From an uncultured Gammaproteobacteria bacterium (lineage in GTDB: Bacteria; Patescibacteriota; Microgenomatia; UBA8517), in contig CAZOVJ010000001.1 of assembly GCA_964583685.1 (NCBI GenBank), forward strand, positions 260,033 to 324,032: a stretch of 64,000 nucleotides of DNA, written 5' to 3'. Made by a program: the position numbers and the translations under genes. The notes under the pieces were generated by a model, which saw only the letters and a list, made by a program, of their open reading frames with translations, was not told the DNA's origin and ran no database searches. The first letter of the stretch is position 1. Every line of letters starts with the position of its first letter. Below, one piece after another: positions 41,679 through 57,323 of the stretch.

Positions 41679-41965
41679 TGAAACTTGGCCACAAGTTCTT
41701 CCTGAATTAAATAAATAACTTTTTCTGGCTTGACCATTCCCAGCTCTTCGGCTTTCTTTTTAATTCTGACAAGTGAGGTGTTTGAAATTAAAAGGGAAGT
41801 TAACTCCCTGTTTTCAATCTGAAAAGCCTTTTTTTCTTCTTCATATTTTAAAAGTTCATTTCCTTTTGAAGTTAATTCAATAGTGAAAAGGATTGTCAAA
41901 ATAACCAACAGTCCTAAGAAAATACTAAATAAAACAAATTTGCTTTTAGGTTTTGTCTTTTTCAT
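41675..41965 (-). CDS. ftsL: FtsL-like small bitopic division protein
   Basis: 96 aa, single TM then coiled-coil; sits between rsmH and ftsI. Confidence 0.5.
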   Translation of the reverse strand: MKKTKPKSKFVLFSIFLGLLVILTILFTIELTSKGNELLKYEEEKKAFQIENRELTSLLISNTSLVRIKKKAEELGMVKPEKVIYLIQEELVAKFQ

Positions 41966-42834
41966 TTTTTTTCTAAAATTCGCAATTTGGCACTTCTAGA
42001 CCTTGAATTATTTCTTACTTCGACCGAGCTAGCCCTAATTGGCCTTTTGCTCAAAATATAAGCTAAATTAGCCTTAGCCATTTCCTTAAAAAAAGTCTTC
42101 ACTATCACATCCTCCAAAGAATGGAAACTAATAACCAACAATCTCGCTCCAGGTTTCAAAATTGAGAATGCTTTTGGTAGTCCTTCTCGTAAATTTTCAA
42201 GCTCGGAATTAACCTTGATACGCAAAGCTAAAAAAGCTTTTGTGGCCGGATGAAGTTTTCCTTTCTTCCTTAGAACCCTTGTCACCTTTAAAAAATCTCC
42301 TACTGTTTTAAAGGGAGATTGCCTTCTTTGTTTAATTATGGCCTTCACCAACTTATCACTCTCCACTTTACCCATAACCTTTTCAAATCCCTGTTTTAAT
42401 TGATCCGGCCTTAGAATATTAAGCAAGTCTGCCGCACTTACCCCTTGACTATTTGGACTAAGTTTCATATCCAGAAGAGCTCCCTCTTCCTGGAAAGAAA
42501 AACCCCGATTGGCTGAGTTAAAGTGAGCACTTGAAACTCCTAAATCAAAAATTATTCCATCAGCAGGAGCAAAACCTTCTCTCTTAGCTATCTCATCAAT
42601 TTTCCTAAAATTAGCCTGAACCAATTTAAAAGATTCCTGAGAATAAACCTTCTCCAAGCGCCTTTTAGCCATCGCCAACATCTTTTCATCAATATCAATT
42701 CCCAAAACAATTCCCCCTTTTTCAATAATTTCGGCTGCGTGACCGCCTCCACCGACAGTTGCGTCAATGTACCGAGCCTGATTTTTAAGGTGCAATCCTT
42801 CTATAACCTGGTCAATAAGTACCGGTTCATGCAT
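41962..42834 (-). CDS. rsmH: 16S rRNA (cytosine1402-N4)-methyltransferase
   Basis: 'MHEPVLIDQV' conserved start (track ORF extends 15 codons further upstream to 42879), 'DATVGGGGHA'; 8-nt overlap with mraZ end. Confidence 0.85.
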   Translation of the reverse strand: MHEPVLIDQVIEGLHLKNQARYIDATVGGGGHAAEIIEKGGIVLGIDIDEKMLAMAKRRLEKVYSQESFKLVQANFRKIDEIAKREGFAPADGIIFDLGVSSAHFNSANRGFSFQEEGALLDMKLSPNSQGVSAADLLNILRPDQLKQGFEKVMGKVESDKLVKAIIKQRRQSPFKTVGDFLKVTRVLRKKGKLHPATKAFLALRIKVNSELENLREGLPKAFSILKPGARLLVISFHSLEDVIVKTFFKEMAKANLAYILSKRPIRASSVEVRNNSRSRSAKLRILEKK

Positions 42835-43270
42835 CTTTCTTTGTTTTCTGTGCCAATTTTTCAACCAACTCTCCGGCATGACGAGCGATATAATTTTCTC
42901 TTTTCAGCCATTCTGCCCTGTTCCAAATCTCAACCCTATCGCCCAATCCGATAAAAACAAGGTCACTTTCTAAATGGGCATATCCAGCCAGAGATGCCGG
43001 AATAATTACCCGCCCTTGGTCATCGGGTTCAAGTTCAAAGGCAGAACCCAAAATAAATCTATCCGTATCTCTAACCGGGGCGGTTACCACCTGAGCTTTG
43101 CCTGTTAATTTGTTTAAAAGGGCTTGCCAATTTGTTTTTGAGATAATGATTAAGCACTCTTCATACCATCTGGCAACAATTATTTTCTCGCCCAATTCTC
43201 GTCTAAACTTATTGGGAATAGCTACCCTCCGCTTGCTACTTAGAATTCCAGAATAATGACCAATCAACAT
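42827..43270 (-). CDS. mraZ: transcriptional regulator MraZ
   Basis: Two MraZ half-domains with 'AIPNKFRREL' and 'DxxGRVIIP' motifs; first gene of dcw cluster. Confidence 0.85.
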   Translation of the reverse strand: MLIGHYSGILSSKRRVAIPNKFRRELGEKIIVARWYEECLIIISKTNWQALLNKLTGKAQVVTAPVRDTDRFILGSAFELEPDDQGRVIIPASLAGYAHLESDLVFIGLGDRVEIWNRAEWLKRENYIARHAGELVEKLAQKTKKDA

Positions 43271-43275
43271 ATCCC

Positions 43276-43303
43276 TTCACCACTTTACACCACTAATCAC
43301 CAT
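43276..43303 (-). promoter_or_regulatory. candidate MraZ operator: three direct repeats GTGGTG/ATGGTG (plus-strand CACCAC at 43278, 43288; CACCAT at 43298) with exact 10-bp phasing, 8-33 nt upstream of mraZ ATG
   Basis: Read directly; two more ACCA[C/T] copies at ~43355 and ~43364. Confidence 0.4.
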
Positions 43304-43330
43304 TTTCCATACTTTTCACGCACTTGTCAA
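43302..43330 (-). promoter_or_regulatory. putative mraZ promoter: minus-strand -35 TTGACA (plus 43325-43330), weak -10 GAAAAT ~17 nt downstream
   Basis: Hexamers read directly; -10 is weak. Confidence 0.25.
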
Positions 43331-43368
43331 GCCCCTATAACCACGCTTGCTTTTACCATTTTTACCAC

Positions 43369-43397
43369 TTGACAAGAAATAAAAGACTATATACATT
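43369..43397 (+). promoter_or_regulatory. plus-strand sigma70-like promoter: -35 TTGACA (43369-43374), 17-nt spacer, -10 TACATT (43392-43397); alternatively TATACA with 15-nt spacer
   Basis: Read directly; divergent from mraZ. Confidence 0.3.
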
Positions 43398-43400
43398 AAA

Positions 43401-43436
43401 ATCCCAGAGGCAAAAAATGCATCTGGGATTTTTTTT
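43401..43436 (+). terminator. intrinsic terminator: stem ATCCCAGA/TCTGGGAT (8 bp), 12-nt loop, T7 run
   Basis: Read directly. Confidence 0.55.
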
Positions 43437-43471
43437 AAAACAAAAACTAATAAAAACTTTCTTCAAGTCCA

Positions 43472-43496
43472 AGAGCCCCAGGGCTCTTTTTTTTTG
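43472..43496 (+). terminator. intrinsic terminator: stem AGAGCC/GGCTCT, loop CCAG, T9 run
   Basis: Read directly. Confidence 0.6.
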
Positions 43497-43639
43497 CCCA
43501 AATTTGAACCCAAATATTTATCGAGCCAGGATCGATCGCGGTTCTGGAACCGTTAATTTTTTGGGAATCTAATATACGGAGTCCTTTTGCACTTTAACAA
43601 TTAAATTGAAGGTTGATAAGAAAGCTAACTCTCCTTATT

Positions 43640-43790
43640 AGCGTTGATTTGCAACGCAGTGATTTGGGTTTTAGGTAAGGGTAAACTAAAACCCGACTTG
43701 CTGCGTTGCAGCGCGCGGCAATGGAGGAGGGGAACAAAATGCTGTATACCGTTCGATTCCGCCTGTAAAAACCATAAGGAGAAAACTGAA
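43640..43790 (+). promoter_or_regulatory. structured 5' leader of the BMP transporter gene: hairpin A (GCGTTG 43641-46 / CAACGC 43652-57), hairpin B (GGGTTTTAG 43666-74 / CTAAAACCC 43686-94), and an 11-bp long-range helix (43649-59 with 43701-11) mutually exclusive with hairpin A; RBS AAGGAG at 43776
   Basis: Complementarity read directly; riboswitch class not identifiable by eye. Confidence 0.35.
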
Positions 43791-44915
43791 ATGTTCAATC
43801 GTCTTCTGCTCTTACTACTCACCGTAGCCTTGATGACGACCCTGTCCGCTTCGGCTCAGGAGGAAGAAGCATTCCGAATCGGAGTCGTCAACATCGGTCC
43901 TAACAACGACGGTGGCTGGACTACCGCTCACATGGAGGGGCTTAGAACTGCACTGGCCCGCTTCGGCGCGGTTGAAGGCCTCGTCAACGACAACTGGGAA
44001 CCTGTAGATCTGGTTCCCATTAGCTCTCTTCGCTATAGAGTAAAATCTGGCGAAAGAATTACCATCGAACTCTCAGTAGTAGAAGCAGTGGCGCCGGAAG
44101 CCTTTTGGCGTGTTGCCGAAAGCCTGATCTTGAACTTTGGTGTGAATCTGCTGTTAAGTACAGCAGAAAACTACTGCTCTGACACTTACGGATTAGCGGC
44201 CATTTACCCAAACATCAATTTCGCTACCATCCACTGCGACTATGAAAATCCAGCGCCTAACGTGGCCAGCTACTTCGGAAGAAGTTACCAAGCAGAGTAC
44301 GCAGCCGGCGCAGCACTGGCCATAATGTCCAAGTCCGGCATAGCCTGTTTCGTCGGTGCATTCGAGGAAAACGGCCAGGTAGCAACTAATCTGGCCGGCT
44401 TCGCCAGCGGTTTCCGCGACTTTTTTGACGAAGATGTAGAAATCGCTACCCGATTCACCGGCACATGGTATGGGCCGGACTTGGAGGTCCAAGCAGCACA
44501 ATCGTGCCCCGAAGGGTACGATGTAGCCTGGGCCCACCAAGATAGTCCCTTCGCCGGAACAGTCTTTGCTGAAGACAACGCCTATTTCGTCGGCTATGAC
44601 TCAGACTGGCGTAATGCACTGGGTGAAAACCTTGCTATTACCAGTGTAGTTTACCACTGGGAAAGACTCTATTACCCTTTCATTAAAGGAGCAATAGAAG
44701 AAGACTTCCCGGCTGGTCGTCACTGGCCTGGCATAGGAGAGGAAGTCGTGGGGCTTGCACCCTGGAGTCTTTTAGCAACTGATGAGGCCAAAGAAGTTGC
44801 CAAAAACTTAGTCGAACAGATCGCTGAGGGTGAACGTGTGGTCTTCCCACATCTCAGCGAAATGGAGATTTGGAATCTGAGCGATTGGCAACTGGCTTAC
44901 GCCGGCGACCAGTAA
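43791..44915 (+). CDS. BMP-family (PnrA/Med-like) ABC transporter substrate-binding protein, secreted (signal peptide, no lipobox Cys)
   Basis: RBS AAGGAG then ATG at 43791; signal peptide MFNRLLLLLLTVALMTTLSASA; 'IGVVNIGPNNDGGWTTAHMEG' resembles BMP-family N-terminal motif; ~50% GC; track ORF start 43644 is a spurious 5' extension. Confidence 0.6.
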   Translation: MFNRLLLLLLTVALMTTLSASAQEEEAFRIGVVNIGPNNDGGWTTAHMEGLRTALARFGAVEGLVNDNWEPVDLVPISSLRYRVKSGERITIELSVVEAVAPEAFWRVAESLILNFGVNLLLSTAENYCSDTYGLAAIYPNINFATIHCDYENPAPNVASYFGRSYQAEYAAGAALAIMSKSGIACFVGAFEENGQVATNLAGFASGFRDFFDEDVEIATRFTGTWYGPDLEVQAAQSCPEGYDVAWAHQDSPFAGTVFAEDNAYFVGYDSDWRNALGENLAITSVVYHWERLYYPFIKGAIEEDFPAGRHWPGIGEEVVGLAPWSLLATDEAKEVAKNLVEQIAEGERVVFPHLSEMEIWNLSDWQLAYAGDQ

Positions 44916-44970
44916 AAGCTCTCCCCTCCTCCAAACTTCCATTCTAAAATTACCCACAAGGAAGGACGAA

Positions 44971-46008
44971 ATGCGACAAATGTCAATCTATAAAGGAAAC
45001 CCTACTCAGGTTTTGCTTTCGATTTTCTACTCACTTGCCATTGGAGGGATACTGATAGTCTTGTTAGGATACAATCCCTTCGAAGTATGCGTAGAGGCAA
45101 TCAGGTCGACTCTAGGCAGCATTCACAAGATATCTGAGCTGCTAGTCGTAGCCACCCCACTTATACTAATTTCTGTTGGCTACACTATCTCCTTCCGCAC
45201 TTCATGGAACATTGGTGCAGAAGGCCAGTATGTAGTTGGAGCCATCGCCGCAACATTCGTTAGCCTCCACCTAGTAAAAGACCAACCTACACTAGTGGCA
45301 ATTTCAACAATAGCCCTTGCCAGTATACTAACGGGGGCAAGTTATGTTTCTGTAGCAGCTTGGCTCAAACTACGCTGGAATCTAAATGTAGTCTTTCCAA
45401 CACTGATGCTAAACTTCATTAGTGTCAGAGTTGCCCAGTATCTTTACTCGGGCCCATGGAAAGATCCTTCGGGTGGTTTTCCTAGAACAGAACGATTTCC
45501 GGCAAATACAACACTACCATCTCTCTGGCCGGGAACTAGACTTCACATTGGTTTTGTGATTGCCCTAGTCGTCGCTATAGCTGTTTACGTAATCCTACGG
45601 CGTACCACCTGGGGATACGAGATTGGAGCATGCAGTCTTAATCCTCATGCGGCTCGTTATGGGGGAATAAACGTAAAAAGAGTTACCTTTCTCTCCATGG
45701 CCATAGCTGGCGCCTCAGCAGGTCTAGCAGGTGCCATGCAGGTGAGTGGGATAACTCATCGATTGGTCCCGGGTGTAGCAGCAGGATACGGAAACATCGC
45801 TATCATCATCGCCTGGCTATCCGGGCTACATCCCTTGATTACTATTCCTGTAGCTGTTGCCGTAGCTACCCTAATCCTGGGTGGAGAAAACCTCCAAATT
45901 ACACATGGAATCCCCCACGAATTTGGGGAAATCCTGGGGTATACGATAATGTACGGAGTAGTAATTATTGGCAACGAATTGACTAAAAGGTCACTCAAAA
46001 AGGAGTAA
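44971..46008 (+). CDS. ABC transporter permease (BMP/branched-chain-type permease family)
   Basis: ~9 TM helices; follows SBP gene; GC-richer. Confidence 0.7.
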   Translation: MRQMSIYKGNPTQVLLSIFYSLAIGGILIVLLGYNPFEVCVEAIRSTLGSIHKISELLVVATPLILISVGYTISFRTSWNIGAEGQYVVGAIAATFVSLHLVKDQPTLVAISTIALASILTGASYVSVAAWLKLRWNLNVVFPTLMLNFISVRVAQYLYSGPWKDPSGGFPRTERFPANTTLPSLWPGTRLHIGFVIALVVAIAVYVILRRTTWGYEIGACSLNPHAARYGGINVKRVTFLSMAIAGASAGLAGAMQVSGITHRLVPGVAAGYGNIAIIIAWLSGLHPLITIPVAVAVATLILGGENLQITHGIPHEFGEILGYTIMYGVVIIGNELTKRSLKKE

Positions 46009-46014
46009 AAAGCA

Positions 46015-46851
46015 ATGGATACAATCATCATGACTTTGACCAGCGCTGTCTCGCTGGCCTTAGCCGCCATTGGGGAGGTCATCACTGAAAAGGCTGGGGT
46101 TCTAAACCTCTCAATTGACGGTGTTATGAGTCTGGGCGGGTTAGTTGCCTTCGTTGTCGTTTACCAAACCAACAAATCAATCCTGGGAATTTTGGCTGCT
46201 GGGATACTTGGTGCCTTCTTGGGCTTTTTGCACGCAACTTTCGCTGCGCGAGGCAACAACCAGATTCTCATCGGAGTAGTACCTGCCATCCTATTCGCAA
46301 AACTTGCAAATCTACTAGGACAAAGGTATGTCAATAAAATAACTACACACCTAGAACCAGACATTCTCCTTTGGATGTTGATACCTCTTGCTGTTGGTAC
46401 CTGGTTTTTAATCCAGAAAACACACTTCGGACTAGGAATGCGCGCAGTAGGTGAGTATCCGAATGCAGCTCATGCTAACGGCGTGAAAGTTATCCGTACA
46501 CGGATAATAGCTACTGTTCTGGGCTCAGCTCTGTTTGCTATCGCCGGAGCACATATAGTCCTTGTCCTGGTACGAGGAGTCTGGAGTAATAACATTGTCA
46601 ATAACAGAGGTTGGGTAGCATACGCCATTGCTGTCTTTTCCGGCTGGAATCCAATTCTAGCTTTGGTGGGTGCTATCCTATTTGGAGCGGCAACAATAGG
46701 TCAGTTTCTGGTACAGGGACTGAATTTGGACATACCCCCAAGCCTTCTCAGTGCTACGCCATATGTCCTCGCAGGAATCGCCTATATCAGAAGCTTGAAC
46801 ACTCAACCTGCTGCCCTAGGACAAGAGTGGTCACCCGAGAATATCGCATGA
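46015..46851 (+). CDS. ABC transporter permease, second subunit
   Basis: ~8 TM helices; 6-nt gap after first permease; no ATPase gene follows. Confidence 0.7.
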   Translation: MDTIIMTLTSAVSLALAAIGEVITEKAGVLNLSIDGVMSLGGLVAFVVVYQTNKSILGILAAGILGAFLGFLHATFAARGNNQILIGVVPAILFAKLANLLGQRYVNKITTHLEPDILLWMLIPLAVGTWFLIQKTHFGLGMRAVGEYPNAAHANGVKVIRTRIIATVLGSALFAIAGAHIVLVLVRGVWSNNIVNNRGWVAYAIAVFSGWNPILALVGAILFGAATIGQFLVQGLNLDIPPSLLSATPYVLAGIAYIRSLNTQPAALGQEWSPENIA

Positions 46852-46991
46852 AACTCTTAACCGTCTCACAATCTTCAATGCCTAAGGACTCTGGGGAACG
46901 GAGGAAGTTGCAATGCTTTTGCACAATCTTGTGCCAGCAAAGCTACTTTCTCCCGCCCCATCCGTTAAAAGAATTATTTATTAAAGAAAAT

Positions 46992-48002
46992 ATGCCTTTA
47001 AAAAAAGAAGATATACCTCCATACTTGAAATTTGAGAATGGAAGGGTCGTCATTGATGAAAATTTCATTCATGAAGGCTCTTCAGGTCCATTTACTTTTC
47101 TGTCCGACTATGGAAAAAATCTTGAATATTTAAAAGAATCAACCGAAGTTGACTATCTCCCACAAGGTATTGAAATTCATGCCCGCACAAAAACTAAAGT
47201 TCGCACTGCCTCAGATAATTTAACCCGATTAGCTAATCTTGGGATTGATTTCAATATTCCCGCTTTTGGTGTGCTCTATGCTGCCAATTTCACTTTGGCT
47301 TTTATTCCACCTTTTGAGGCAGCTATTAGCAAAGCGGGTAATAGATGGAGTCTACTTGCACCCCTCAGGGGCGGAGAACCAATTCATATCATTGCAAAAG
47401 CTAAGGGTTACAAGCATAATATTCCCCGTTTTCGGGCTAGTAGGGTAATTTTGCTAAACGGAGAATACCTGGTTGGTATCCAGGAATTAGATTCAGACAT
47501 TAAACTTGAAAATGTTTTACTCCTTTGTGATGATTGCTTAGCGGCAGCCGGCTCAGCCGACACTACTGTAAGATGGGCTTGTCAGATAAACCCAAACATT
47601 AGAGAAATTTACGGTGTGGTCGGTGTGGGAGTCAAGCGCTCAACTGAAACTCTCTCCGTCACTTGGAAGAGAAACAAATTAAATTCAAGCTTTGAGATGG
47701 GAGCTGATGCTAATACAATGGATGATAATTACTATCTAAGGGTAACCGAAGAAGAAAAAGGTAGTCGATTTCCTGAGCACTGTACTTATAGGGTTGGCGA
47801 CATGGGCCAGGCAATGAACTTAACAGATGCTAGAAGAAGAAATGTTTTAGAACCAGTTATTAGGGCTGTTGCTAATCCGGGAATTGATCCTCAATTGATT
47901 TTTGAGGCTACGTCCAGAGTGGTTAAAAATCCTTTGTCTCTTCACCTATGGGCTGATAAAATCTTTACTAAGGCTCAACTTGCTCTTGCTCAGCAGTGCT
48001 GA
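46992..48002 (+). CDS. type I phosphoribosyltransferase-like protein (UPRT-like PRPP motif) with ~130-aa N-terminal extension
   Basis: PRPP-binding motif 'VLLLCDDCLAAAGSADTT' (compare UPRT 'IVDPMLATGGSA'); 'LRGG' and C-terminal 'YRVGDMGQA' regions loosely parallel UPRT; the track ORF start (46611) overlaps the permease in another frame, first in-frame ATG after it is 46992. Confidence 0.4.
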   Translation: MPLKKEDIPPYLKFENGRVVIDENFIHEGSSGPFTFLSDYGKNLEYLKESTEVDYLPQGIEIHARTKTKVRTASDNLTRLANLGIDFNIPAFGVLYAANFTLAFIPPFEAAISKAGNRWSLLAPLRGGEPIHIIAKAKGYKHNIPRFRASRVILLNGEYLVGIQELDSDIKLENVLLLCDDCLAAAGSADTTVRWACQINPNIREIYGVVGVGVKRSTETLSVTWKRNKLNSSFEMGADANTMDDNYYLRVTEEEKGSRFPEHCTYRVGDMGQAMNLTDARRRNVLEPVIRAVANPGIDPQLIFEATSRVVKNPLSLHLWADKIFTKAQLALAQQC

Positions 48003-48087
48003 TAAAAATCCCCACATCTGAAGATTTACCAAGTTTAAGTTCTTCCCATCCACCTCGCGTCCAGCGATAGTAGTTACCTTCACCCAT
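48000..48087. repeat. 88-bp direct repeat, copy 1 (orphaned 3'-end fragment of gene 49857..50600)
   Basis: Identical to 49874..49961 except 48003 T vs 49877 C. Confidence 0.9.
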
Positions 48088-48089
48088 TT

Positions 48090-48284
48090 CTAGTCACTAA
48101 CACTTATGGCTCTGGCCGGACAGCCCTTGGCTGCCTCAAGAATAGTTTTAATGTCATCATAAGGGCCAGGTTTCAGTTTGCTAATTGATTTTTCATCAAG
48201 TTCAAATGTCTTTGGGGCAATGCTTGCACAAAGGCCACAAGAAATGCAGAGAGAGCGGTTTATTTTAATTTTCGGTTTTGCCAT
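48090..48284 (-). CDS. small ferredoxin (single Fe-S cluster, CxxCxxC...CP type)
   Basis: 'CISCGLCASIAP' plus distal 'GCPARAI'. Confidence 0.6.
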   Translation of the reverse strand: MAKPKIKINRSLCISCGLCASIAPKTFELDEKSISKLKPGPYDDIKTILEAAKGCPARAISVSD

Positions 48285-48296
48285 TCTTTAATCATA

Positions 48297-49001
48297 TTAA
48301 AAATATTTTTCAAAGTAAATTTTATTTTCAGGAAAGCCGATCCTCATTAGTCTTTGTTTGAGATCCTCAATCATTTTTTGATTACCACAGAGATAACAAC
48401 TGGTTTTCTTAAAACTTAAATTTTTAGCCAGATTTATTACATAATTATTAACATGTCCCCCCTTGCCTGGCCAGCCGTTTTCTGATTGGGAAAGAATAAT
48501 TTTGTAATGAAAATTGGAATGATCCTTTTGCCAGTTGTCAAGAAGCTCTTGGGAAAAAATGTCTTTTTGGTATCTTAATCCCCAGAAAAGATAAATCTTT
48601 TTTTGGCTCCTTTGAGCGAAAAGCTCCTCAATAATTGGCTTCATGGAGACAATACCACAGCCGGTGGCAGCAAAAATAAAGTTGTTGCTTTTATCGTCTT
48701 TTAAAGTTAGATTTCCTTTGGCACTGCTTGTTTTGATAGTTTCTCCTGGATTTAGTTTTTTCAGAAACCGGCTGCCCGGCCCACCTGGGGTAATGTCCAC
48801 TAGTATTTCCCAAAAAGGCAAATTTTCGGGGATAGAGGCAATAGAATAAGCGCGGTAAACAGATTTTGAAATCTTGACAACTACGAACTGGCCGGCCTTG
48901 AAGGAAAAACTTTTATCCATCATTCTAAAACAAAGACTGCGAAACTTATAATTGAGACTGTTATTTTCGATTACCTCTGATTTGTAAAATTTGGGTTTCA
49001 T
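48297..49001 (-). CDS. FNR-family FAD/NAD(P)-binding oxidoreductase
   Basis: FAD motif 'RAYSIAS' (RxYS), 'GGPGS', NAD-binding 'FAATGCGIVSMKPI'; 12 nt from ferredoxin gene. Confidence 0.6.
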   Translation of the reverse strand: MKPKFYKSEVIENNSLNYKFRSLCFRMMDKSFSFKAGQFVVVKISKSVYRAYSIASIPENLPFWEILVDITPGGPGSRFLKKLNPGETIKTSSAKGNLTLKDDKSNNFIFAATGCGIVSMKPIIEELFAQRSQKKIYLFWGLRYQKDIFSQELLDNWQKDHSNFHYKIILSQSENGWPGKGGHVNNYVINLAKNLSFKKTSCYLCGNQKMIEDLKQRLMRIGFPENKIYFEKYF

Positions 49002-49130
49002 TGGAAGATAGAGTTCTTGATTCAGGGATCAGTCGACAGACTACTGAACCCAGCTCAGATAATAGCAATTTTCATACACTAAATAATAACATGCCCAAAA
49101 GTATTATGAAGTGTTAAACTAAAAGGCGGA

Positions 49131-49895
49131 ATGAGAAGAAAAGGATCAAAGGTTATTGTTGTGATGCCCGCCTATAATGCGGAGAGGACCCTCCAAAAGA
49201 CCTACAAAGATATTACTCCGGGTGTGGTTAATAAAGTAATTTTGGTTGATGATGGGAGCCACGATAAAACAGTCAAGAAGGCTGAGAAGTTGGGTATTGA
49301 AACGATTGTTCACCCCCAAAACAGAGGCTATGGTGGTAATCAGAAGACTTGTTACACAATGGCCCTCAATGAGGGGGTGGATATAGTCGTCATGATTCAC
49401 CCTGATTATCAATATGACAGCCGCTTAACAGGGGAGATCGTCAGACCGATAATTGATGGACGTTTTGATATCATGCTTGGCTCTCGAATAAGGACCAGAA
49501 AAGAAGTACTTGAAGGCGGAATGCCGGCTTATAAATATTTTGCCAATCGTTTCTTAACAGTTCTGGAAAATATTATTCTTGGCCAAAATCTTTCAGAATA
49601 TCATACTGGCTTTCGAGCATTTCACAAAAATGTGTTTAAAAAGCTACCCTTCCATAAATTTTCAGATGATTTTGTTTTTGACCAAGAAATTTTGATTTCG
49701 GCAATTCATCGGGGCTACAAAGTCGGAGAGATACCGGTTCCCGTTCGTTATTTTCCCGATGCCTCATCAATAAATTTTAGGCGCTCATTAATCTATGGTT
49801 TAGTAACACTTTTTGCCCTTTTTAAATATATTTTGGCAACATTGGGCATTTATCATTCAAAAATTTTTGCAAATGACAAAAATCCCCACATCTGA
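49131..49895 (+). CDS. family 2 glycosyltransferase, polyprenyl-phosphate sugar synthase (DPM-synthase/GtrB-like)
   Basis: 'VIVVMPAYNAERTL', 'LVDDGSHDKT', 'DYQYD'; C-terminal TM. Confidence 0.7.
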   Translation: MRRKGSKVIVVMPAYNAERTLQKTYKDITPGVVNKVILVDDGSHDKTVKKAEKLGIETIVHPQNRGYGGNQKTCYTMALNEGVDIVVMIHPDYQYDSRLTGEIVRPIIDGRFDIMLGSRIRTRKEVLEGGMPAYKYFANRFLTVLENIILGQNLSEYHTGFRAFHKNVFKKLPFHKFSDDFVFDQEILISAIHRGYKVGEIPVPVRYFPDASSINFRRSLIYGLVTLFALFKYILATLGIYHSKIFANDKNPHI

Positions 49896-50600
49896 AGATT
49901 TACCAAGTTTAAGTTCTTCCCATCCACCTCGCGTCCAGCGATAGTAGTTACCTTCACCCATCTCAATTGTTCCCGGATAAGTGTTTTTACCTGAAGTGAA
50001 TATTCCATAAGGACCTGAAGAAAGAGCTCCCGGCAGGTCAGCCGGAACTCCAAAGGTTTCCATGACCACAAAAAAAGTGCCTCTGGGAATTTTATCCAGA
50101 CTATAACTAAATTCTCCATCAACCGTGGTCAAAGCTTTGATCCCGCTTTGGAGATGAAAATCCGTACTCAACTTTCCCAACAGCTTTCCCTTATCATTTC
50201 TGAAACGAAGGGTGAGAGTTCCTTTTTCCACTCCCTCATCATATCTAAACTTACCCGAGGATTCAGAACCCAAAAGAAGATCTCTTTCAAGAAAAGTTTC
50301 ATTGTCTAAACTTACTGTTCCCGGAACGCCCTGGGTCCGGCCGTCAGAAACCCGATAAAGAAGTTCATAATCCATTGAATCGACATTAGTCACCTTAATA
50401 TCAACTATCTCAAGCTTTAACCAATGTCCGTCTTCACTTGGAGTCAGAGAAACCACTGGTCTCTGTTCAAAGGGGATCTCGGGAACAAATTTCTCCTCTT
50501 CAACAATTGTGCTCTTTCGTGTCTTGATAAACAAAAAATAGGTAGCAACAAAAACTCCTATCCCCAAGAGAAACAAAATAATGGGCAGAAACTTTTTCAT
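49857..50600 (-). CDS. hypothetical N-terminally anchored extracytoplasmic protein (247 aa)
   Basis: N-terminal TM; no motif recognised; 39-nt convergent overlap with GT2 gene. Confidence 0.5.
   Translation of the reverse strand: MKKFLPIILFLLGIGVFVATYFLFIKTRKSTIVEEEKFVPEIPFEQRPVVSLTPSEDGHWLKLEIVDIKVTNVDSMDYELLYRVSDGRTQGVPGTVSLDNETFLERDLLLGSESSGKFRYDEGVEKGTLTLRFRNDKGKLLGKLSTDFHLQSGIKALTTVDGEFSYSLDKIPRGTFFVVMETFGVPADLPGALSSGPYGIFTSGKNTYPGTIEMGEGNYYRWTRGGWEELKLGKSSDVGIFVICKNF
49874..49961. repeat. 88-bp direct repeat, copy 2 (encodes C-terminus of minus gene 49857..50600 and last 7 codons of GT2 49131..49895)
   Basis: See copy 1. Confidence 0.9.
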
Positions 50601-51914
50601 TTATTGCCTTATCTTATTTTCAATATAGCTTGTCAATTTGTCAACCGATACTCTTATTTGTTTTGTCGTATCTCTGTCTCTAATTGTCACTGTATCATCC
50701 TCAAGGGTTTGAAAGTCAACGGTCAGACACCAGGGAGTGCCAATCTCATCTTGAGCAAAATAGCGCTTGCCAATATTGCCCCGGTCATCCCACGTTGCAG
50801 AAAATTGCTGAGCAAGCTTATCAAAAATTTTTCTGGCCTGGTTTACTAATTTGGGTTTATTGGCCAAAAGAGGAAAAACAGCCACTTTATAGGGAGCTAA
50901 TTGAGGATGTAGACTGAGAACAACCCTCTCCTTTTCCTGGTGATAGGCATCCAAAAGGAAAAAAAGAGCTGAACGGTCTACCCCACCAGAAGTTTCTATT
51001 ACCCAGGGCATATATTCCTGGCCGGTTTCTCTATCTTTATAGTTTAGATGATGCCGGCTTAAGTCCCAATCTCCTCTGTGATGAATTCCTTCAAATTCGC
51101 TCCAGCCAAAAGGCGCCTGATATTCGATATCTTCGGCAAAACGGGCGTAGTGAGCCCGCTCATCCGGCCCATGTTCCCGAAAGCGAAGTTTCTTCTTTTC
51201 CATTCCCAGGGCAAGAAACCATCTCAATCTTTCCTCCTTCCAATAAGCAAAAAGCTTTTCAGCCTCTTTTTCCTCGGGCTGAATAAAATACTCCAGCTCC
51301 ATTTGTTCGAATTCACGACTTCTATAGGTAAAATTTCCTGGGGTGATTTCATTGCGAAAGGCCTTACCAATTTGGGCAATACCAAAAGGAATTCTCATCG
51401 CCATTGAATCAACAACATTTTTGAAATTGACAAAGACACCCTGGGTTACTTCCCCCCGAAGATAAGTTTTTTTCTTCCCCTTCTCCGTTGTCCCAATATA
51501 AACCTCTGTCAGAAGATTGAATTTCTTCGACTCTGTCAGCTCTCCTTGACAATCAGGACAAAGATTCCCTTTTAGGCTGTCTGCTCTAAACCGATGATGG
51601 CACTGCTTGCATTCAACCAATGGATCGGTAAAAGCCTCTATGTGGCCAGAGGCCTGCCAAACTTTGGGATTCATAATGATGGCCGCATCCAAACCTATAA
51701 CGTCATCTCTCTCGTAAACCATGGTCTTCCACCACGAACGTTTGATATTGTTTTTAAGTTCAACTCCCAGGGGTCCATAATCCCAAAACCCACGCAGGCC
51801 ACCATAAATCTCGGAGCCGGGATAAATAAATCCCCGCCTTTTGGCTAAAGAAACAATTTTTTCCATTTTACCCATGCTCAACAAATTATACTTAGAAAAT
51901 AAGCTTTTTGCCAA
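50601..51914 (-). CDS. glyQS: glycine--tRNA ligase (class II, dimeric type)
   Basis: 'RGFIYPGSEIYGGLRGFWDYGPLG' N-terminus, class II motifs. Confidence 0.85.
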   Translation of the reverse strand: MAKSLFSKYNLLSMGKMEKIVSLAKRRGFIYPGSEIYGGLRGFWDYGPLGVELKNNIKRSWWKTMVYERDDVIGLDAAIIMNPKVWQASGHIEAFTDPLVECKQCHHRFRADSLKGNLCPDCQGELTESKKFNLLTEVYIGTTEKGKKKTYLRGEVTQGVFVNFKNVVDSMAMRIPFGIAQIGKAFRNEITPGNFTYRSREFEQMELEYFIQPEEKEAEKLFAYWKEERLRWFLALGMEKKKLRFREHGPDERAHYARFAEDIEYQAPFGWSEFEGIHHRGDWDLSRHHLNYKDRETGQEYMPWVIETSGGVDRSALFFLLDAYHQEKERVVLSLHPQLAPYKVAVFPLLANKPKLVNQARKIFDKLAQQFSATWDDRGNIGKRYFAQDEIGTPWCLTVDFQTLEDDTVTIRDRDTTKQIRVSVDKLTSYIENKIRQ

Positions 51915-52437
51915 CGCGAAGGCTGGTCATTTCTCTTTCCACAATACTCTCTAAAACTTTATCATGTTCAAGTAGGGATTTGTTTTTCGGCCAAAAACCC
52001 AAAAGAACGAGTGAATCTTTTATAAATTTTTCCCTTAATTTTCTTAAAAATTTTGTTCGCTGGAGGTCTTCCAGGGCGTTCAATAAGAGGAAGAAAAATT
52101 GCTCATTTCTCTCGCTATCTCGGGTTAAACGTCCCACCGTCTCAAGAAGAAAATAGGCAACAGCCACTCTCCTCAAATCTTTTCTTATCAAGGAAAAGGA
52201 GTTAATTATCTCTACTTCTGCCATCAAATCCAAACCTTTCCCTCGAGAAGCGGAAAAGCGGATGTAATTAAAAACCTCCAAAGAACCTCCCTTGCGACTT
52301 TGAACTTTTCTTACTCCTTTGGCCAATAGAGAAAGTTTACCGTAATGTTTGCTATAAATAACTAAAATTCTATCTGCTTCGGAATAATTTCTTCGAGCTA
52401 AAACTACCCCTTCACTTCTGTAATTTCTAGACCTCAC
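51892..52437 (-). CDS. recO: short RecO-like DNA repair protein (OB-fold N-terminal domain)
   Basis: 'EGVVLARRNYSEADRILVIYSKHYGKLSLLAKGVRK' resembles RecO N-terminus; only 181 aa. Confidence 0.45.
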   Translation of the reverse strand: MRSRNYRSEGVVLARRNYSEADRILVIYSKHYGKLSLLAKGVRKVQSRKGGSLEVFNYIRFSASRGKGLDLMAEVEIINSFSLIRKDLRRVAVAYFLLETVGRLTRDSERNEQFFFLLLNALEDLQRTKFLRKLREKFIKDSLVLLGFWPKNKSLLEHDKVLESIVEREMTSLRVGKKLIF

Positions 52438-54470
52438 TAGATTCTGAAGCGGAGCTCCTTATCGGTTTTCAAGAAAAACTCTTCCTCTTGTTTGCCTAGA
52501 GAAATCGTGTATAGAGGAGAGTCATGACCGGCTTGTTTCTGAATCAAAAGTTTATATTCTTTGTTAAACTTGAAAGGTAGTTTATATTTAAAACTTAACT
52601 TAACAACTCCTTGAGGCCGCAAACGAAAACCACCGCAAAAAACCGTCTTGCCTAATTCCTCATAGGTTTCTCCCGCTTCTTCAAGACCATCAACAGATAT
52701 TAGTTCAGAACCCAGAGGAACATAAATTCTGGTCCAATTGGGAAGAACCGAATTCAGCCAACCATCATAGTCCTGGGGATTCTTATAAGTAATTGTCAAA
52801 AGCTTTTCCACACTTCCATCCCGAGCTATCTCAATTTCCTGATGAACTTCTTGGCTCACATAAAGATTTGATTTCCTGCCGCCCAAATTAGCATCATTGA
52901 TATGGAGATAATCTTCTTGGTAATCTTTAAGTCTGCCGGCTATATTAAATGCCTCAACACCTCTCTGAACTTCTTCATCTAACATATAAAAAAGAACATG
53001 CTTTTCGGTAAGGGATTTATAGCCGGCTTCAAAAAGCTCAGGCAGTTTATCTTTGGGTTGTCCCATTGCGTTACTCAAAATCGAATTCATCAAAGGCCCA
53101 ATTATCTTTTTCCGGTTATCTATATTTGGAGGAGCAAATACAATTTCTCCTGACACTGGATCCCAAACAATCGGGCCTTCGGTATCAGCAAAACTTTCAA
53201 GCTCGTAAATAACCTGGGGACAATCACATTCGGGAATTATTTTTGTGCTGAAATTACCAAATCCAGGTACCCCAATCTCTCCGGTTACCTCCAATAAATT
53301 AACCAATACTTGAGTATCAACAGCAATTACCCCATCAATATTTCTTATTCCCAGCTTTTGCACCTCTTGAGTAAAGAGTTCCATGCTATTTTTAAAATCA
53401 GGATTAAAATTCATATCTCGTAATCTTAAGCTCCGAGAAAGGACATAAGGACCCTTGATATATTTAATTATTGGCTCAGGAGCAGGTAAGACTGGAGTAT
53501 AACGGGCATCTAGATTATAAATATCGTTTGACAAGACCGGTTTAAACTTTCCTTTATCTACACTCATAATTGAATAGGCAGTCATAAACCCACCAGTCGG
53601 CCGTAATTCCTTGTCATTCTGAAAGAGAATTAAATAAGTTCTCTGCTCATCAATTCCTAAAAGATAAGGAGCGACCTCCAAAAGAGGTTTTCCTTGACCA
53701 ATAATATTGGCGACCTCATCAACTATCACTATCAAGCTTCTGATTTTCTCACGTATTTTTTTGCCAGCAAAAGTAACTGGATAGCGATTAGGATTAATCT
53801 TATCAATCTCTGTCTGTACCAGCTTTGTTTTCTCTGAAATTACTTCGAGCTGAGGAATAACTTCATTAATTGTTTGAACAACAAATTCAACTCTATCACT
53901 AGCGCTTTCCTCTCCACTCTGAGCCTGCTCACTTTCATCCCCTTTAAAACCAATAATGTCTGCATAGGGTTCAATTGTCGTTACTACTAGCTCGGCAGCA
54001 TCCATTCCATAAAGGCCGGCTTTAATCACCGCCTCTCCATCTTGATAATAAGCACTGAGAAGAGGAATGGGTTTAGTCCAGGAAAGATATTTGAAGGATT
54101 TCTGTAAACCAAGTAAATCGCTTCTCAGCTGAGTAATCCCCTGTTTAATTTTGTCAATATCTTGCTCCTCTCTAACAACTCCTTCTAAAGACTGAGCAGA
54201 AACAATCAGTTTCTGGGCTTTCCTATAAACAAAAAAAGAAGGTATTGTCAGGCCCAAGATAAATACAAGAAACAATATCCCTAATCCAACTAGAGTCCAA
54301 AGAACTCTCTTTTTGCCCTTATTCTTGTGCAAATTCTTCTCTTTCTCTTTTACATTCTTTGCTTCTTCTTCGTTTTCTTGATTCTCTATTCCTGGCTTAA
54401 TCTGCTCGAGATTCATTGTCTCAGATTTCAACTCAATCTTGGGAATTTCTTTTTTATTATCTTTATCCAT
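52437..54470 (-). CDS. large N-terminally anchored extracytoplasmic protein of unknown function (677 aa), glycan-locus associated
   Basis: Lys/Glu-rich N-terminus then a TM helix; no motif recognised. Confidence 0.5.
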   Translation of the reverse strand: MDKDNKKEIPKIELKSETMNLEQIKPGIENQENEEEAKNVKEKEKNLHKNKGKKRVLWTLVGLGILFLVFILGLTIPSFFVYRKAQKLIVSAQSLEGVVREEQDIDKIKQGITQLRSDLLGLQKSFKYLSWTKPIPLLSAYYQDGEAVIKAGLYGMDAAELVVTTIEPYADIIGFKGDESEQAQSGEESASDRVEFVVQTINEVIPQLEVISEKTKLVQTEIDKINPNRYPVTFAGKKIREKIRSLIVIVDEVANIIGQGKPLLEVAPYLLGIDEQRTYLILFQNDKELRPTGGFMTAYSIMSVDKGKFKPVLSNDIYNLDARYTPVLPAPEPIIKYIKGPYVLSRSLRLRDMNFNPDFKNSMELFTQEVQKLGIRNIDGVIAVDTQVLVNLLEVTGEIGVPGFGNFSTKIIPECDCPQVIYELESFADTEGPIVWDPVSGEIVFAPPNIDNRKKIIGPLMNSILSNAMGQPKDKLPELFEAGYKSLTEKHVLFYMLDEEVQRGVEAFNIAGRLKDYQEDYLHINDANLGGRKSNLYVSQEVHQEIEIARDGSVEKLLTITYKNPQDYDGWLNSVLPNWTRIYVPLGSELISVDGLEEAGETYEELGKTVFCGGFRLRPQGVVKLSFKYKLPFKFNKEYKLLIQKQAGHDSPLYTISLGKQEEEFFLKTDKELRFRI

Positions 54471-55109
54471 TTAAACAGCTCCTTTCCCAGAAAGCATTAC
54501 CCATGGGGTTTTAAGAAGTATTAAAACATCAAGCAAAATTGACTTTTTCTTGGCGTAATAAGCATCCATTTCTATTCTCTTGTCAAAATTCACTTCACTT
54601 CGTCCTGAAACTTGCCAAAAACCGCTGATTCCTGGTTTAACTGATAAAACTTCCTTAACAAGCTCTTTTGTTTGCGGATACCTTTTCTGTTGCTCCTCAA
54701 GCTCATCAGGATAATAGGGTCGTGGACCAACAATACTCATCTCCCCCTTTAAAACATTTATCAGTTGGGGAATTTCATCAATAGAATGCTTTCTAATAAA
54801 CTTGCCAATCCTGGTAATTCTCGGGTCATCATAAAGCTTATAACTTGATTTTCTATATTCCTTGTAAAGTTTTTTAAACCTGGGGTCTGTATGTAAAAGC
54901 TTATGGGCATTAATAATCATCGATCTAAATTTATAAGGACAAAATAACTGACCATCCTTGCCAACCCGCTTTGGTGTATCGGCAAAAATAGAACCAGGTG
55001 AGGTTAATTTTATTATAATTGCTGTAATCAAACAAGGTAAAGAAAAGATGATTAACAAAACAATTGAGCCAATTATATCGATAATTCTCTTAATTATCCT
55101 GTAATACAT
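54471..55109 (-). CDS. polyprenyl-phosphate sugar-phosphotransferase (small PglC/WbaP-C-terminal type initiating transferase)
   Basis: N-terminal TM; 'DEIPQL', 'MSIVGPRPY' PGT signature. Confidence 0.75.
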   Translation of the reverse strand: MYYRIIKRIIDIIGSIVLLIIFSLPCLITAIIIKLTSPGSIFADTPKRVGKDGQLFCPYKFRSMIINAHKLLHTDPRFKKLYKEYRKSSYKLYDDPRITRIGKFIRKHSIDEIPQLINVLKGEMSIVGPRPYYPDELEEQQKRYPQTKELVKEVLSVKPGISGFWQVSGRSEVNFDKRIEMDAYYAKKKSILLDVLILLKTPWVMLSGKGAV

Positions 55110-55129
55110 ATGGGCAGACAGTAATTATA

Positions 55130-56248
55130 CTATAAAAATTCTTTTCTTTTCTTCTTTTTTAATCCTTGGACAATCTTTTTGACATTTTGAGCCCGACTTT
55201 TGGAACAAACAAGAAGGGCATTTTTTGTATCCACGACAACTACATCATCAACATCAATAATAGCAATCAAGCGGCCATCTGTATGAATCAAAGTATCGGA
55301 AGTATCGATATTGATAATCTCCCCTCCCGGCTCTTGGCCGTCAATAACAACATTCCTTTGTGAATCCTTTGGTAGATTTTCCCAAACTTCCTTCCAGTCC
55401 CCAATATCTGTCCACCGGTAATCGGCAACCAGTAAAAGAAAATTCCTCGCCTTTTCAGAAATGGCGTAATCAACGGAAACTTCAGGCATCCTCTTGTACT
55501 CTCCAATGATAACCTCTCTTTCATTTTTTGTTCCTATTGCTCGAGAAATCTTCTCTAAACCCTGGTTAATCTTTGGAGCGTAGCTCTTGAGAGCCTTGAG
55601 AAAAGAATCCGCTCTCCAAATATACTGGCCGGCATTCCAAAAATAATCTCCACTAGCTAAATATTTCTTGGCCAATTTAAGTTTTGGTTTCTCAGTAAAC
55701 CTCTCGAGCCTGTAAACAGTTTTCCCTTCAAAGACTCGCCAGCGTTCACCTTTTTTGATATAGCCGTAACCAACATTGGGATATGATGGTTTAATCCCTA
55801 TGGCCACAAGCCAATCCCCACTATAAGCGGCCATGGCGGCAGCCTTGATGGTCTTCAAATACCTACTTTCAGGAACAATCAAGTGGTCTACGTAACCATT
55901 GATTATCACTGCCTCTGAATCCTGTTTATGGATGTAGGCTGTACCTAGGGCATGAGCCGGAGCTGTATTCCTTCTAGCTGGCTCGACAAAAATATTCTCA
56001 GAAAGTATTTCAGGAACTTCCTTAAGAATTTCTCTTTTATAATCCGGTGAGGTAGTAATAACAAAAATTCTCTCCCAGGGTAACAGCTTTCTCAAACGAT
56101 AAGCAGTTATCTCAGTCAGTGTTCTTTTTTTGAAGAGTTTTAAAAACTGTTTTGGAGTAGCATTTCTGGACTTTGGCCAAAGCCTTGTACCTCCACCGCC
56201 AACAATAATCAAAACATACAAATGATCTTGATAATTATCTTTTAACAT
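55130..56248 (-). CDS. manC: mannose-1-phosphate guanylyltransferase-like sugar nucleotidyltransferase
   Basis: 'LIIVGGGGTRLWPKSR' nucleotidyltransferase G-loop. Confidence 0.65.
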   Translation of the reverse strand: MLKDNYQDHLYVLIIVGGGGTRLWPKSRNATPKQFLKLFKKRTLTEITAYRLRKLLPWERIFVITTSPDYKREILKEVPEILSENIFVEPARRNTAPAHALGTAYIHKQDSEAVIINGYVDHLIVPESRYLKTIKAAAMAAYSGDWLVAIGIKPSYPNVGYGYIKKGERWRVFEGKTVYRLERFTEKPKLKLAKKYLASGDYFWNAGQYIWRADSFLKALKSYAPKINQGLEKISRAIGTKNEREVIIGEYKRMPEVSVDYAISEKARNFLLLVADYRWTDIGDWKEVWENLPKDSQRNVVIDGQEPGGEIINIDTSDTLIHTDGRLIAIIDVDDVVVVDTKNALLVCSKSRAQNVKKIVQGLKKKKRKEFL

Positions 56249-57323
56249 CCTTTACTAGTCTCAGAAACTCCCTTTTAAATCTCTTTTTGGAAAATCTTTC
56301 TGCATTTTGCGATATTAATCTACTCTTAAATTTCATTTTTTGAAATCTTCCCACTGCCCTTATTAAGCTTTCCGGCTCTTGTTTGTCAAAAAATATACCT
56401 GTTAGGCCATCAACAACTATATCCAAGGCTCCGCCGGCCTTGTAAGCAATAACCGGCTTGCCTAAAGTTTGGGCCTCGACAGCAACCAGGCCAAAATCCT
56501 CCTCTTGGGGGAAAATTAACCCGGCACAATTATTATAGTAATCAGATAACTCAGCGTCTGTCAATTGACCAACGAACTTTATGTTTCTTTTTGCTTTCCT
56601 TTTTAACCTCTTCTTTTCTTTACCTATACCAACAATCACTAAAGGTAATTCCAATTGATTAAAGGCCTCAATCGCCAAATCAACCCTTTTATAAGGCACC
56701 AGACGAGAAACTATTAAATAAAATTCTGGGCCCGCCTTGACTCGGCGAGGCAGGCCCGCCTTGCCGACAGACAAGTCAACCGGCGGATACATAAGATAAC
56801 TATCCCGGGCATAATATTTCTTTATTCTCTTTTGCACCTCTGTTGAGATAGCTACTAACACATCCTGTTTCTGAGCAGCCACTCTATCCCAGCTCCTCAG
56901 ATAGGAAACAACCGGCCTTGAAATTAGTCTTAAAAATGAATTTCTAAAATAAAAATCATAACCACTCCACAAATATCTAGTTGGTGTTAAACAAAAACAA
57001 ATATGCAAGGTTCCAGGCTTAGTGATAATTCCCTTTGCCGCCTCGCTAGTAACAGAAATTACAAGGTCATATTCCTCAAAGGAAAAGCCTTCAAAGGCAA
57101 GGGGCATGAGATAGGCAAAGAGCTCATGGCGGTCTTTCGCTAGGGGAATTTTTTGCAGAAAAGAAGGTGTTATTTGGGGAAAGACTTTTGCCCAAGGGGC
57201 GGTGATAGGATTATAAACGGCAGTGTAAAGAGGAGCTTGGGGAAAAATCTCGTGTAGGACCAAAAGTAATCTTTCTGCCCCGCCCCATTTATTAACCCGG
57301 TCGTAAACCAAAGCAACCTTCAT
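56235..57323 (-). CDS. family 4 (GT-B) glycosyltransferase
   Basis: 'EDFGLVAVEAQTLGKPVIAYKAGG' GT4 motif. Confidence 0.7.
   Translation of the reverse strand: MKVALVYDRVNKWGGAERLLLVLHEIFPQAPLYTAVYNPITAPWAKVFPQITPSFLQKIPLAKDRHELFAYLMPLAFEGFSFEEYDLVISVTSEAAKGIITKPGTLHICFCLTPTRYLWSGYDFYFRNSFLRLISRPVVSYLRSWDRVAAQKQDVLVAISTEVQKRIKKYYARDSYLMYPPVDLSVGKAGLPRRVKAGPEFYLIVSRLVPYKRVDLAIEAFNQLELPLVIVGIGKEKKRLKRKAKRNIKFVGQLTDAELSDYYNNCAGLIFPQEEDFGLVAVEAQTLGKPVIAYKAGGALDIVVDGLTGIFFDKQEPESLIRAVGRFQKMKFKSRLISQNAERFSKKRFKREFLRLVKDVKR

Follow-up and report, generated by a model that had tools for sequence, protein, structure and literature searches.

What kind of event places the 3′ end of one gene on both sides of a small gene cassette and leaves the gene itself open? 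The question is raised by a stretch of DNA of 64,000 nucleotides (nt), here called the window, from an uncultured bacterium of the Patescibacteriota lineage Microgenomatia (contig CAZOVJ010000001.1 of assembly GCA_964583685.1, positions 260,033 to 324,032). A preliminary description of this DNA pointed to near-identical direct repeats around genes for a ferredoxin (Fd), an FNR-family reductase and a GT2 glycosyltransferase. These were seen as the footprint of either site-specific integration with duplication of an attachment (att) site, or a duplication/rearrangement event. The repeats represent the 3′ end of the gene for a conserved protein of 247 amino acids (aa), here termed p247. The duplication/rearrangement event proves to be the better supported half of that interpretation. 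The locus is probably, if by no means certainly, the scar of a single event, namely a duplicative insertion into the p247 3′ end that was independent of a recombinase and kept p247 open.

The direct repeats are real, and slightly longer than first noted. They extend over 91 nt, with matches at 89 of 91 positions (Table 1); the two mismatches are T at 48003 vs. C at 49877 and T at 48088 vs. C at 49962, and the 84 nt between them are identical. The pair is the sole long near-perfect repeat within the window. Exactly two copies are returned when up to three mismatches are allowed, and none in 100 shuffled sequences. On the minus strand, copy 2 codes for the p247 residues ...IEMGEGNYYRWTRGGWEELKLGKSSDVGIFVICKNF and the stop codon. 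Copy 1 starts at the TGA (48000–48002) of an open reading frame (ORF) for a phosphoribosyltransferase (PRTase)-like protein, and the GT2 and p247 genes overlap by 39 nt, both as previously described. The part of p247 that the repeat encodes is conserved at the protein level in ~150 relatives. Secondary structural modelling of the repeat predicts no significant hairpin (fold z = −1.8). Its 42-nt core has no match in viral contigs, and amid 173 fetched loci the 84-mer is present only in contigs of this same genome. As far as these sequences extend, it is thus not a multi-copy dispersed repeat, in keeping with the preliminary description.

Table 1. Features of the p247–mraZ region; positions are those of the window.
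Feature	Position	Strand	Properties
mraZ	42827..43270	−	Directly follows p247 in relatives; promoter-like TTGACA...GAAAAT at 43330–43302
Lineage-specific insertion, whole	43271..49856		6.6 kb between mraZ and p247; ~150 bp there in relatives
Module A	43.6–48.0 kb		Bmp/PnrA-like binding protein, two permeases, PRTase-like gene
Bmp/PnrA-like substrate-binding protein and two ABC permeases	43791..46851	+	Guanine plus cytosine (GC) content 48.8% vs. 38–39% in flanks
PRTase-like protein	46929..48002	+	Rare family; GC 40%; TTG start codon
Orphan ORF	47968..48087	−	39 codons; MGEGNYYRWTRGGWEELKLGKSSDVGIFISTAEQEQVEP, then stop; by translation
Repeat copy 1	48000..48090 (core 48004–48087)		Displaced original p247 3′ end, between modules A and B
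Module B	48091–49873		Fd, FNR, GT2; 1.78 kb; GC 37.7%, host-like
Ferredoxin (Fd)	48090..48284	−	Single-cluster 4Fe-4S (Pfam); stop TAG at 48090–48092, 2 nt from the orphan ATG
FNR-family flavin reductase	48297..49001	−	FAD_binding_6 and NAD_binding_1
GT2 glycosyltransferase	49131..49895	+	Polyprenyl-phosphate-sugar-synthase-like; Pfam PF00535; NCBIfam AglJ/PpgS-like below cut-off
Repeat copy 2	49874..49964 (core 49878–49961)		Right, continuous with p247 5′ part; left, fused to GT2 3′ end
p247	49857..50600	−	247 aa; conserved Woesebacteria protein; no Pfam or NCBIfam family; between the GlyRS gene and mraZ in relatives

Which of the two copies is the original 3′ end of p247 can be judged from the tails that follow them. 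Among 90 distinct C-termini of relatives that bear a G[IVL][FL] motif, the consensus after the motif is [IV]-[GAS]-[TV]-S-E followed by the stop, and the tail has 4–5 residues in 69. Copy 1 continues as GIF-ISTAE and agrees with the family's common residues at four of five positions, positions 47989–48003 on the minus strand encoding the family-typical ISTAE. Copy 2 continues as GIF-VICKN and agrees at one of five; the last five codons of the present p247 (ICKNF) come from GT2-derived DNA. By this fit to the family consensus copy 1, together with ~15 nt to its left (to ~47989), is the displaced original 3′ end of p247 with its native tail retained. The position expected for the stop, 47986–47988, now reads CAA. 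Copy 1 forms the orphan ORF, which in abbreviated form reads MGEGNYY...GIFISTAEQEQVEP or MGEGNYY...SSDVGIFISTAEQEQVEP before its stop; in-frame stops precede it. The earlier view of copy 1 as an orphaned duplicate is correct as to the orphaned gene end, but copy 1 is not the secondary duplicate, since the native tail marks it as the original.

The sequence order is thus native p247 5′ part, duplicated segment, insert, duplicated segment and native tail. The thought that both p247-derived copies end at the same nucleotide, which would imply a site-specific break, was dropped, as copy 1 runs ~15 nt further as native p247. The left edge of the repeat is the GT2/p247 joint, and with copy 1 continuing as native sequence, the coincidence of endpoints is only apparent. 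It should be pointed out that p247 diverges fast: among the matches listed, orthologues show at most 66% aa identity to the window protein, and the best metagenome relative 62%. Identity over 84 nt despite this divergence argues that both copies derive from this lineage and not from an element-borne att sequence moved between hosts.

The ancestral state of the site is evident from relatives. The p247 relatives fetched comprise 78 species-representative genomes and 80 metagenome contigs (158 loci), and those with names are almost all Candidatus Woesebacteria or other Microgenomates/Patescibacteria. All loci that include the flanks have their genes in the order DUF4012 protein, RecO, GlyRS, p247, MraZ and RsmH. 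In all 146 related loci that have both genes, mraZ directly follows p247, and the median gap from the p247 stop is 149 bp (77 genome loci) or 153 bp (69 metagenome loci). Downstream of p247 the relatives have a CTTGACA..GTGAAAA motif similar to the promoter-like sequence before mraZ. Homologues of GT2, FNR, Fd, the PRTase-like protein, the permeases and the Bmp protein are absent from the 158 loci with their fetched flanks of up to 10 kb. Since relatives have p247 and mraZ separated by ~150 bp, the whole stretch from the end of mraZ to p247 is lineage-specific, and the PRTase-like/permease module (module A) is itself an insertion, as is the Fd-FNR-GT2 block (module B). An empty site in which the PRTase-like gene directly converges on p247 had been predicted; it was never seen, and 146 of 146 related loci show p247–mraZ.

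In the Woesebacteria, to which the genome of the window is assigned, the p247–mraZ gap is a hot spot where insertions recur. Approximately 10–17% of relatives have unrelated inserts of 0.5–3.8 kb in this gap, among them an IS200/RAYT-like gene, a gene for CTP synthase that runs with its end into p247, and Tad-like genes. The window locus shares the marks of a hot-spot genomic islet, i.e. the flanks are syntenic, the cargo is absent in relatives and the site is reused with other cargo. A duplicated p247 3′ end was found in none of 154 related loci checked, and a positive control on the window recovered the 84-mer. The IS200/RAYT-like gene, of ~222 aa, is in the gap of L005, L010 and the matching metagenome loci L088–L090, L116 and L118. 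It is Y1-transposase-like, with an HFH motif recognized by eye, and is flanked by inverted or direct repeats of 16–20 nt.

The origin of module B is best seen from the GT2 gene. Its homologues number hundreds in Microgenomates (70–88% aa identity), and in relatives they are located within glycan-biosynthesis clusters, beside PMT-type transferases, radical-SAM genes and methyltransferases. One contig from the same sample (L162) carries a GT2 gene that is 88.8% identical at the nt level over window positions 49136–49873. The homology ends at 49873, the left edge of copy 2 and 7 nt before the end of the L162 gene: at this joint (J1) L162 reads ...TTTGCAAA-GAACTGA, and the window reads ...TTTGCAAA-TGACAAAAATCC.... 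The window GT2 gene is without its native last 7 nt and terminates in p247-derived antisense sequence (..DKNPHI). With homology stopping at the repeat edge, the GT2/p247 joint is an illegitimate joint inside a gene end.

The FNR and Fd genes have a similar background. They are paired in the relative L171, where they follow a B12-binding radical-SAM gene (order B12-radical-SAM, FNR, Fd) in a glycan cluster. In L162 the N-terminal part of a homologous radical-SAM gene is encoded divergently from GT2; a radical-SAM remnant was not found between FNR and GT2 in the window cassette. An FNR paralogue, P0128, with 75% identity to the cassette FNR, is probably on the same contig outside the window. Module B looks to have come from a glycan cluster of Microgenomates, by relocation within the genome or by import from a close relative. 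Compared with each other, the two cassette ends give no match of ≥6 nt in either inverted or direct orientation, and the cassette has no match in plasmid and phage collections. Two large glycan-biosynthesis clusters flank the region (5425–14887 and 54471–63986), with Wzy_C, GT1, GT2 and PMT_2 genes, a flippase, a sugar transferase and a nucleotidyl transferase. The cassette GT2 stands apart from both, whereas the GT2 genes of relatives are inside such clusters.

At the other joint the PRTase-like protein extends eight residues beyond its closest homologues, which end in AKA, and its last four codons and TGA are antisense of the native p247 tail. As the PRTase-like end is read from that tail, module A abuts p247 at about the p247 stop codon. 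The first permease of module A is only 47% identical to its best representative match, too distant to name a donor. The segment 47976–47999, CAACTTGCTCTTGCTCAGCAGTGC, contains a tandem CTTGCT CTTGCT, equivalent to GAGCAA GAGCAA (E-Q-E-Q) on the minus strand. This tandem sits at the expected stops of both the PRTase-like gene and p247, and could represent a small duplication where module A meets p247.

The events may be pictured as follows. The ancestral p247 would have ended ...GIF-ISTAE-stop, with mraZ within ~150 bp, as in known relatives. This site would have taken in two unrelated blocks, in either order. Module A, with the GC-rich Bmp/permease genes and the PRTase-like gene, would have gone in near the stop codon of p247. 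Module B consists of Fd, FNR and GT2 minus its last 7 nt; this 1.78-kb piece of a Microgenomates glycan cluster would have entered the coding part of p247 ~100 nt ahead of the stop, and the 84–91-bp target stretch would have been copied to both sides of it. Perhaps a staggered break was filled in and followed by end joining, or a backward template switch took place in replication or repair; a single crossover with a circularized fragment that carried the 84-mer is another candidate route. The upstream copy 2 would then keep p247 open with a new tail of five residues read antisense to GT2, which replaces the last ~4 residues, and the downstream copy 1, the original 3′ end with its native tail, would be orphaned behind the ferredoxin gene. 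The Fd-FNR-GT2 block is an insertion bracketed by a duplicated p247 3′ end, as was proposed in the preliminary description.

Once in place, such an arrangement might be reversible. Homologous recombination between the 84-nt repeats would release the cassette as a 1,874-bp circle, and the deletion would rejoin p247 to the orphan tail ISTAEQEQVEP, i.e. the native tail reading through the lost stop. An identity of 84 nt suffices for occasional RecA-type deletion, and RecO is encoded in the window.

Several points weigh against the duplicative insertion proposed here, or limit it. The three joining routes give the same product and are indistinguishable on sequence; we infer the molecular mechanism of joining, as well as the recency of the event. 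Past each terminal mismatch of the repeats three or two more bases match (TGA before T/C at one end, TC after T/C at the other). Strain variants that have or lack the cassette were not found, and p247 is alone in its cluster at 90% identity. L162 stands in for the module B donor at only 89% identity, which places J1 to within a few nt. The sequence read is 64 kb of a contig of ~485 kb, and the counts of recombinases and of the 84-mer hold for those 64 kb.

The junctions are seen in other assemblies as well. Six other assembled contigs carry at least one of them. One contig of 10,012 nt (L001, JGI 3300008517) is 100% identical to 41904–51915, with both repeat copies included, and another (L002, JGI 3300028837) joins GT2, copy 2 and p247. 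The Fd-stop/copy-1 joint is present in L163 and L164 (Logan, SRR3095939 and SRR3095933), which end 30 nt into the repeat, and in L172 (ENA), which ends 47 nt into it. The joint of the PRTase-like gene and copy 1 is in L173 (JGI 3300008516), which ends 25 nt into the repeat. Contigs that end inside the repeat are to be expected when the assembly graph branches, and none of the contigs shows a contradictory joint. Exact-protein look-ups with p247, GT2, FNR, Fd and the PRTase-like protein return only contigs of the same genome. The SRA runs are from Baltic Sea sediment, Bornholm Basin or Bay of Aarhus (PMC9301287). L002 is without 249 bp at 53183–53431 and is otherwise 99.9–100% identical; the missing segment lies in the DUF4012 gene at 52437–54470 (677 aa), where it represents an in-frame length polymorphism.

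This raises the question of whether other processes could have produced the same arrangement. Recombination between two strain haplotypes, one with module A and one with module B downstream of p247, deserves some weight but is unlikely: one end would be anchored by homology and the other illegitimate, and the recipient's last ~100 nt of p247 would be left behind the incoming block. The cargo of the p247–mraZ gap does differ among relatives, the GC contents of the modules (48.8% vs. 37.7%) speak for separate histories, and the 88.8% identical GT2 gene co-occurs in the same sample. Set against this, neither an A-only nor a B-only haplotype was found, the 90% cluster of p247 again having a single member; the route needs more steps, namely a pre-existing GT2/p247 junction in the donor and a second illegitimate joint, and its outcome on sequence alone equals that of duplicative insertion. 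Somewhat less likely still is an assignment of the cassette to a small integrative element without an integrase, or the remnant of one, with the p247 3′ end as att site, its own replacement end and a recombinase encoded elsewhere in the genome. The exact bracketing by direct repeats, the recurrent use of the site in relatives and a topology like that of icd-e14-icdC, where the functional gene runs into the insert and an orphan C-terminal fragment is at the far end, are all in its favour. However, recombinases are lacking in the cassette, the island and the rest of the window: as had been stated for integrases, none of the 56 ORFs with 110 aa or more has an integrase, recombinase, resolvase or transposase domain (Pfam). 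Nor are there att arms of defined extent at the element ends, GT2 homology breaking off 7 nt before the gene end and running into p247 DNA. No third repeat copy is present at the mraZ side of the island, where local alignments are at chance level (score ≤22) and the 9-mer GGGATTTTT at 43425 is at chance expectation; the repeat forms no significant hairpin, and the cassette ends have no terminal inverted repeats. Identity over 84 nt in so fast-evolving a gene is unexpected for an att sequence carried between hosts, and GT2, a highly conserved Microgenomates gene of glycan clusters, is atypical mobile cargo. The arrangement does not recur in other genomes either (duplicated ends in 0 of 154, cassette genes nearby in 0 of 158), and there is no counterpart of the repeat in viral contigs or of the cassette in the plasmid and phage collections. 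Site-specific integration with att duplication, the other half of the preliminary interpretation, is therefore not upheld.

A quite improbable reading takes the 1,874-bp unit as a recombinase-less mini-cassette, targeted by homology and moving by means of the host 3′ end that it carries, or as the product of a route in the Candidate Phyla Radiation (CPR) that makes gene-protecting target duplications of ~90 bp. If the former were true, the unit would toggle the p247 C-terminal tail as well as the dosage of a conserved glycosyltransferase/reductase set. An assembly artefact is, if anything, more improbable. The chromosome would then read PRTase-like gene, repeat and p247, and the 1,874-bp unit would be a separate circle or strain branch that was threaded through the 84-nt repeat. 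The four observed junctions formally fit a chromosome plus a circle, and the breaks of short-k assemblies inside the repeat (L163, L164, L172 and L173) show that the graph branches there. Nevertheless, the same full path is found in two separate assemblies (NCBI, 484,806 bp; JGI, 10,012 bp), and L002, from another sample, likewise links GT2, copy 2 and p247. Beyond the 6.6-kb island the contig resumes at the syntenic partner mraZ, and copy 1 on the native p247 tail together with copy 2 on the GT2 end, with the p247 frame open, fits an integrated state. Also, typical reads exceed 84 nt in length, as do the largest k-mers used by modern metagenome assemblers. The idea that the 84–91-mer is a dispersed repeat of the repetitive extragenic palindromic (REP) or miniature inverted-repeat transposable element (MITE) type, present by chance at both positions, can hardly be entertained; beyond the existence of two copies nothing speaks for it, and the coding of a conserved p247 segment, the absence of significant secondary structure, the count of only two in the window, and the confinement to contigs of this genome with no viral match all speak against it. 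A transposon or insertion sequence (IS) was ruled out, as there is no transposase, there are no terminal inverted repeats and the duplication is 84–91 bp. An integron cassette was ruled out also, there being no structured repeat, no integrase and, in 41–52 kb, no Rfam, RNA or structure match.

Duplicative insertion thus remains the favoured explanation, and comparison with known systems shows where it has parallels. In the e14 and phage 21 integrations at icd of Escherichia coli, the icd gene extends into the prophage and icdC, a C-terminal pseudogene, is at the far end, with excision recombining the two (PMC13626634, which cites Hill et al., 1989, as its e14/icd reference). The window locus is alike in that the insert is in the 3′ end of a protein gene, the gene is kept by the adjoining copy, the original C-terminal fragment is orphaned, and recombination between the copies would remove the insert and regenerate the gene; target gene 3′ ends are indeed at both sides of 48091–49873. 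e14 differs in being a 15-kb prophage with its own site-specific excision system and an icd-like end that is element-borne and unlike the host copy. The window cassette, in contrast, has 1.78 kb and no recombinase, its repeats are identical over 84 nt, its joint cuts a cargo gene, and it has no parallel in the 154 relatives. The resemblance to e14/icd is one of topology only.

Other parallels are partial as well. Target-site duplications of transposable elements (IS, transposons, casposons) show the same order of target, duplication, insert, duplication and target, and the duplicated stretch is host sequence. These duplications are 2–15 bp long, however, whereas that in the window has 84–91 bp; a transposase, terminal inverted repeats and a further copy of the insert are all missing. 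A Campbell-type single crossover of circular DNA gives direct repeats of exactly the homologous segment and is reversible, but it needs a circle in which the Fd end and the GT2 end are already joined to an 84-nt piece of p247, and none was observed. There is also a likeness to template-switch and microhomology rearrangements, of the fork stalling and template switching (FoSTeS) or microhomology-mediated break-induced replication (MMBIR) type, and to illegitimate recombination in natural transformation. These are one-off events without dedicated enzymes; joints are at arbitrary positions, including inside genes, and a backward switch duplicates the target around an insert. Most descriptions of such events come from eukaryotes and model transformable bacteria. 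Hot-spot genomic islets are similar in having lineage-specific cargo of atypical GC content between syntenic core genes, with cargo that varies among relatives; unlike the window locus, they are usually without a long duplication of a flanking gene end.

Nothing here points to a new class of mobile element; the locus is an insertion scar at a hot spot, and is unusual for the length of the duplication. To our knowledge, gene gain in ultra-small CPR/Patescibacteria genomes is poorly documented, and the locus offers a clean, datable example. It shows a conserved inter-operon gap, where the glyS-p247 unit ends and the mraZ cell-division cluster starts, into which foreign DNA is taken time and again. 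The insertion probably persisted because the duplication, through its upstream copy, kept the target gene open. Convergent cargo genes take their stop codons from the antisense strand of the neighbour. There are consequences for annotation too: the 39-codon orphan should not be called a gene, and p247, GT2 and the PRTase-like protein each end in residues that are artefacts of a junction.

The remaining observations concern module A and its left end. An ATPase gene is not found beside the Bmp/permease genes. Two plus-strand terminator-like hairpins with T-runs, at 43399–43438 and 43471–43495, lie between the promoter region of mraZ and the leader of the Bmp gene, and nothing upstream on that strand calls for a terminator. 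They perhaps survive from the left end of module A or from an old p247 terminator. The Bmp leader itself (43600–43795, plus strand) has a predicted fold of −66 kcal/mol (z = −4.6; 0 of 200 shuffles as stable), and its Shine-Dalgarno region (AAGGAG) is paired with 43630–43638. It has no Rfam match, and an Rfam scan of 41–52 kb gave nothing meaningful. The leader could be an undescribed riboswitch or attenuator of a nucleoside-type ABC importer.

In a set of 5.8 billion clustered proteins the PRTase-like family counts only 10 homologues, and the window protein finds no sequence match in Pfam, NCBIfam or PDB. Its invariant motif DDCxAAxGS resembles a PRPP-binding loop. One homologue (L165) is encoded between a UPRTase gene and the genes for CTP synthase, IMPDH, purB and purA. 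As judged from motif and gene neighbourhood, the protein is probably an uncharacterized enzyme of nucleotide salvage.

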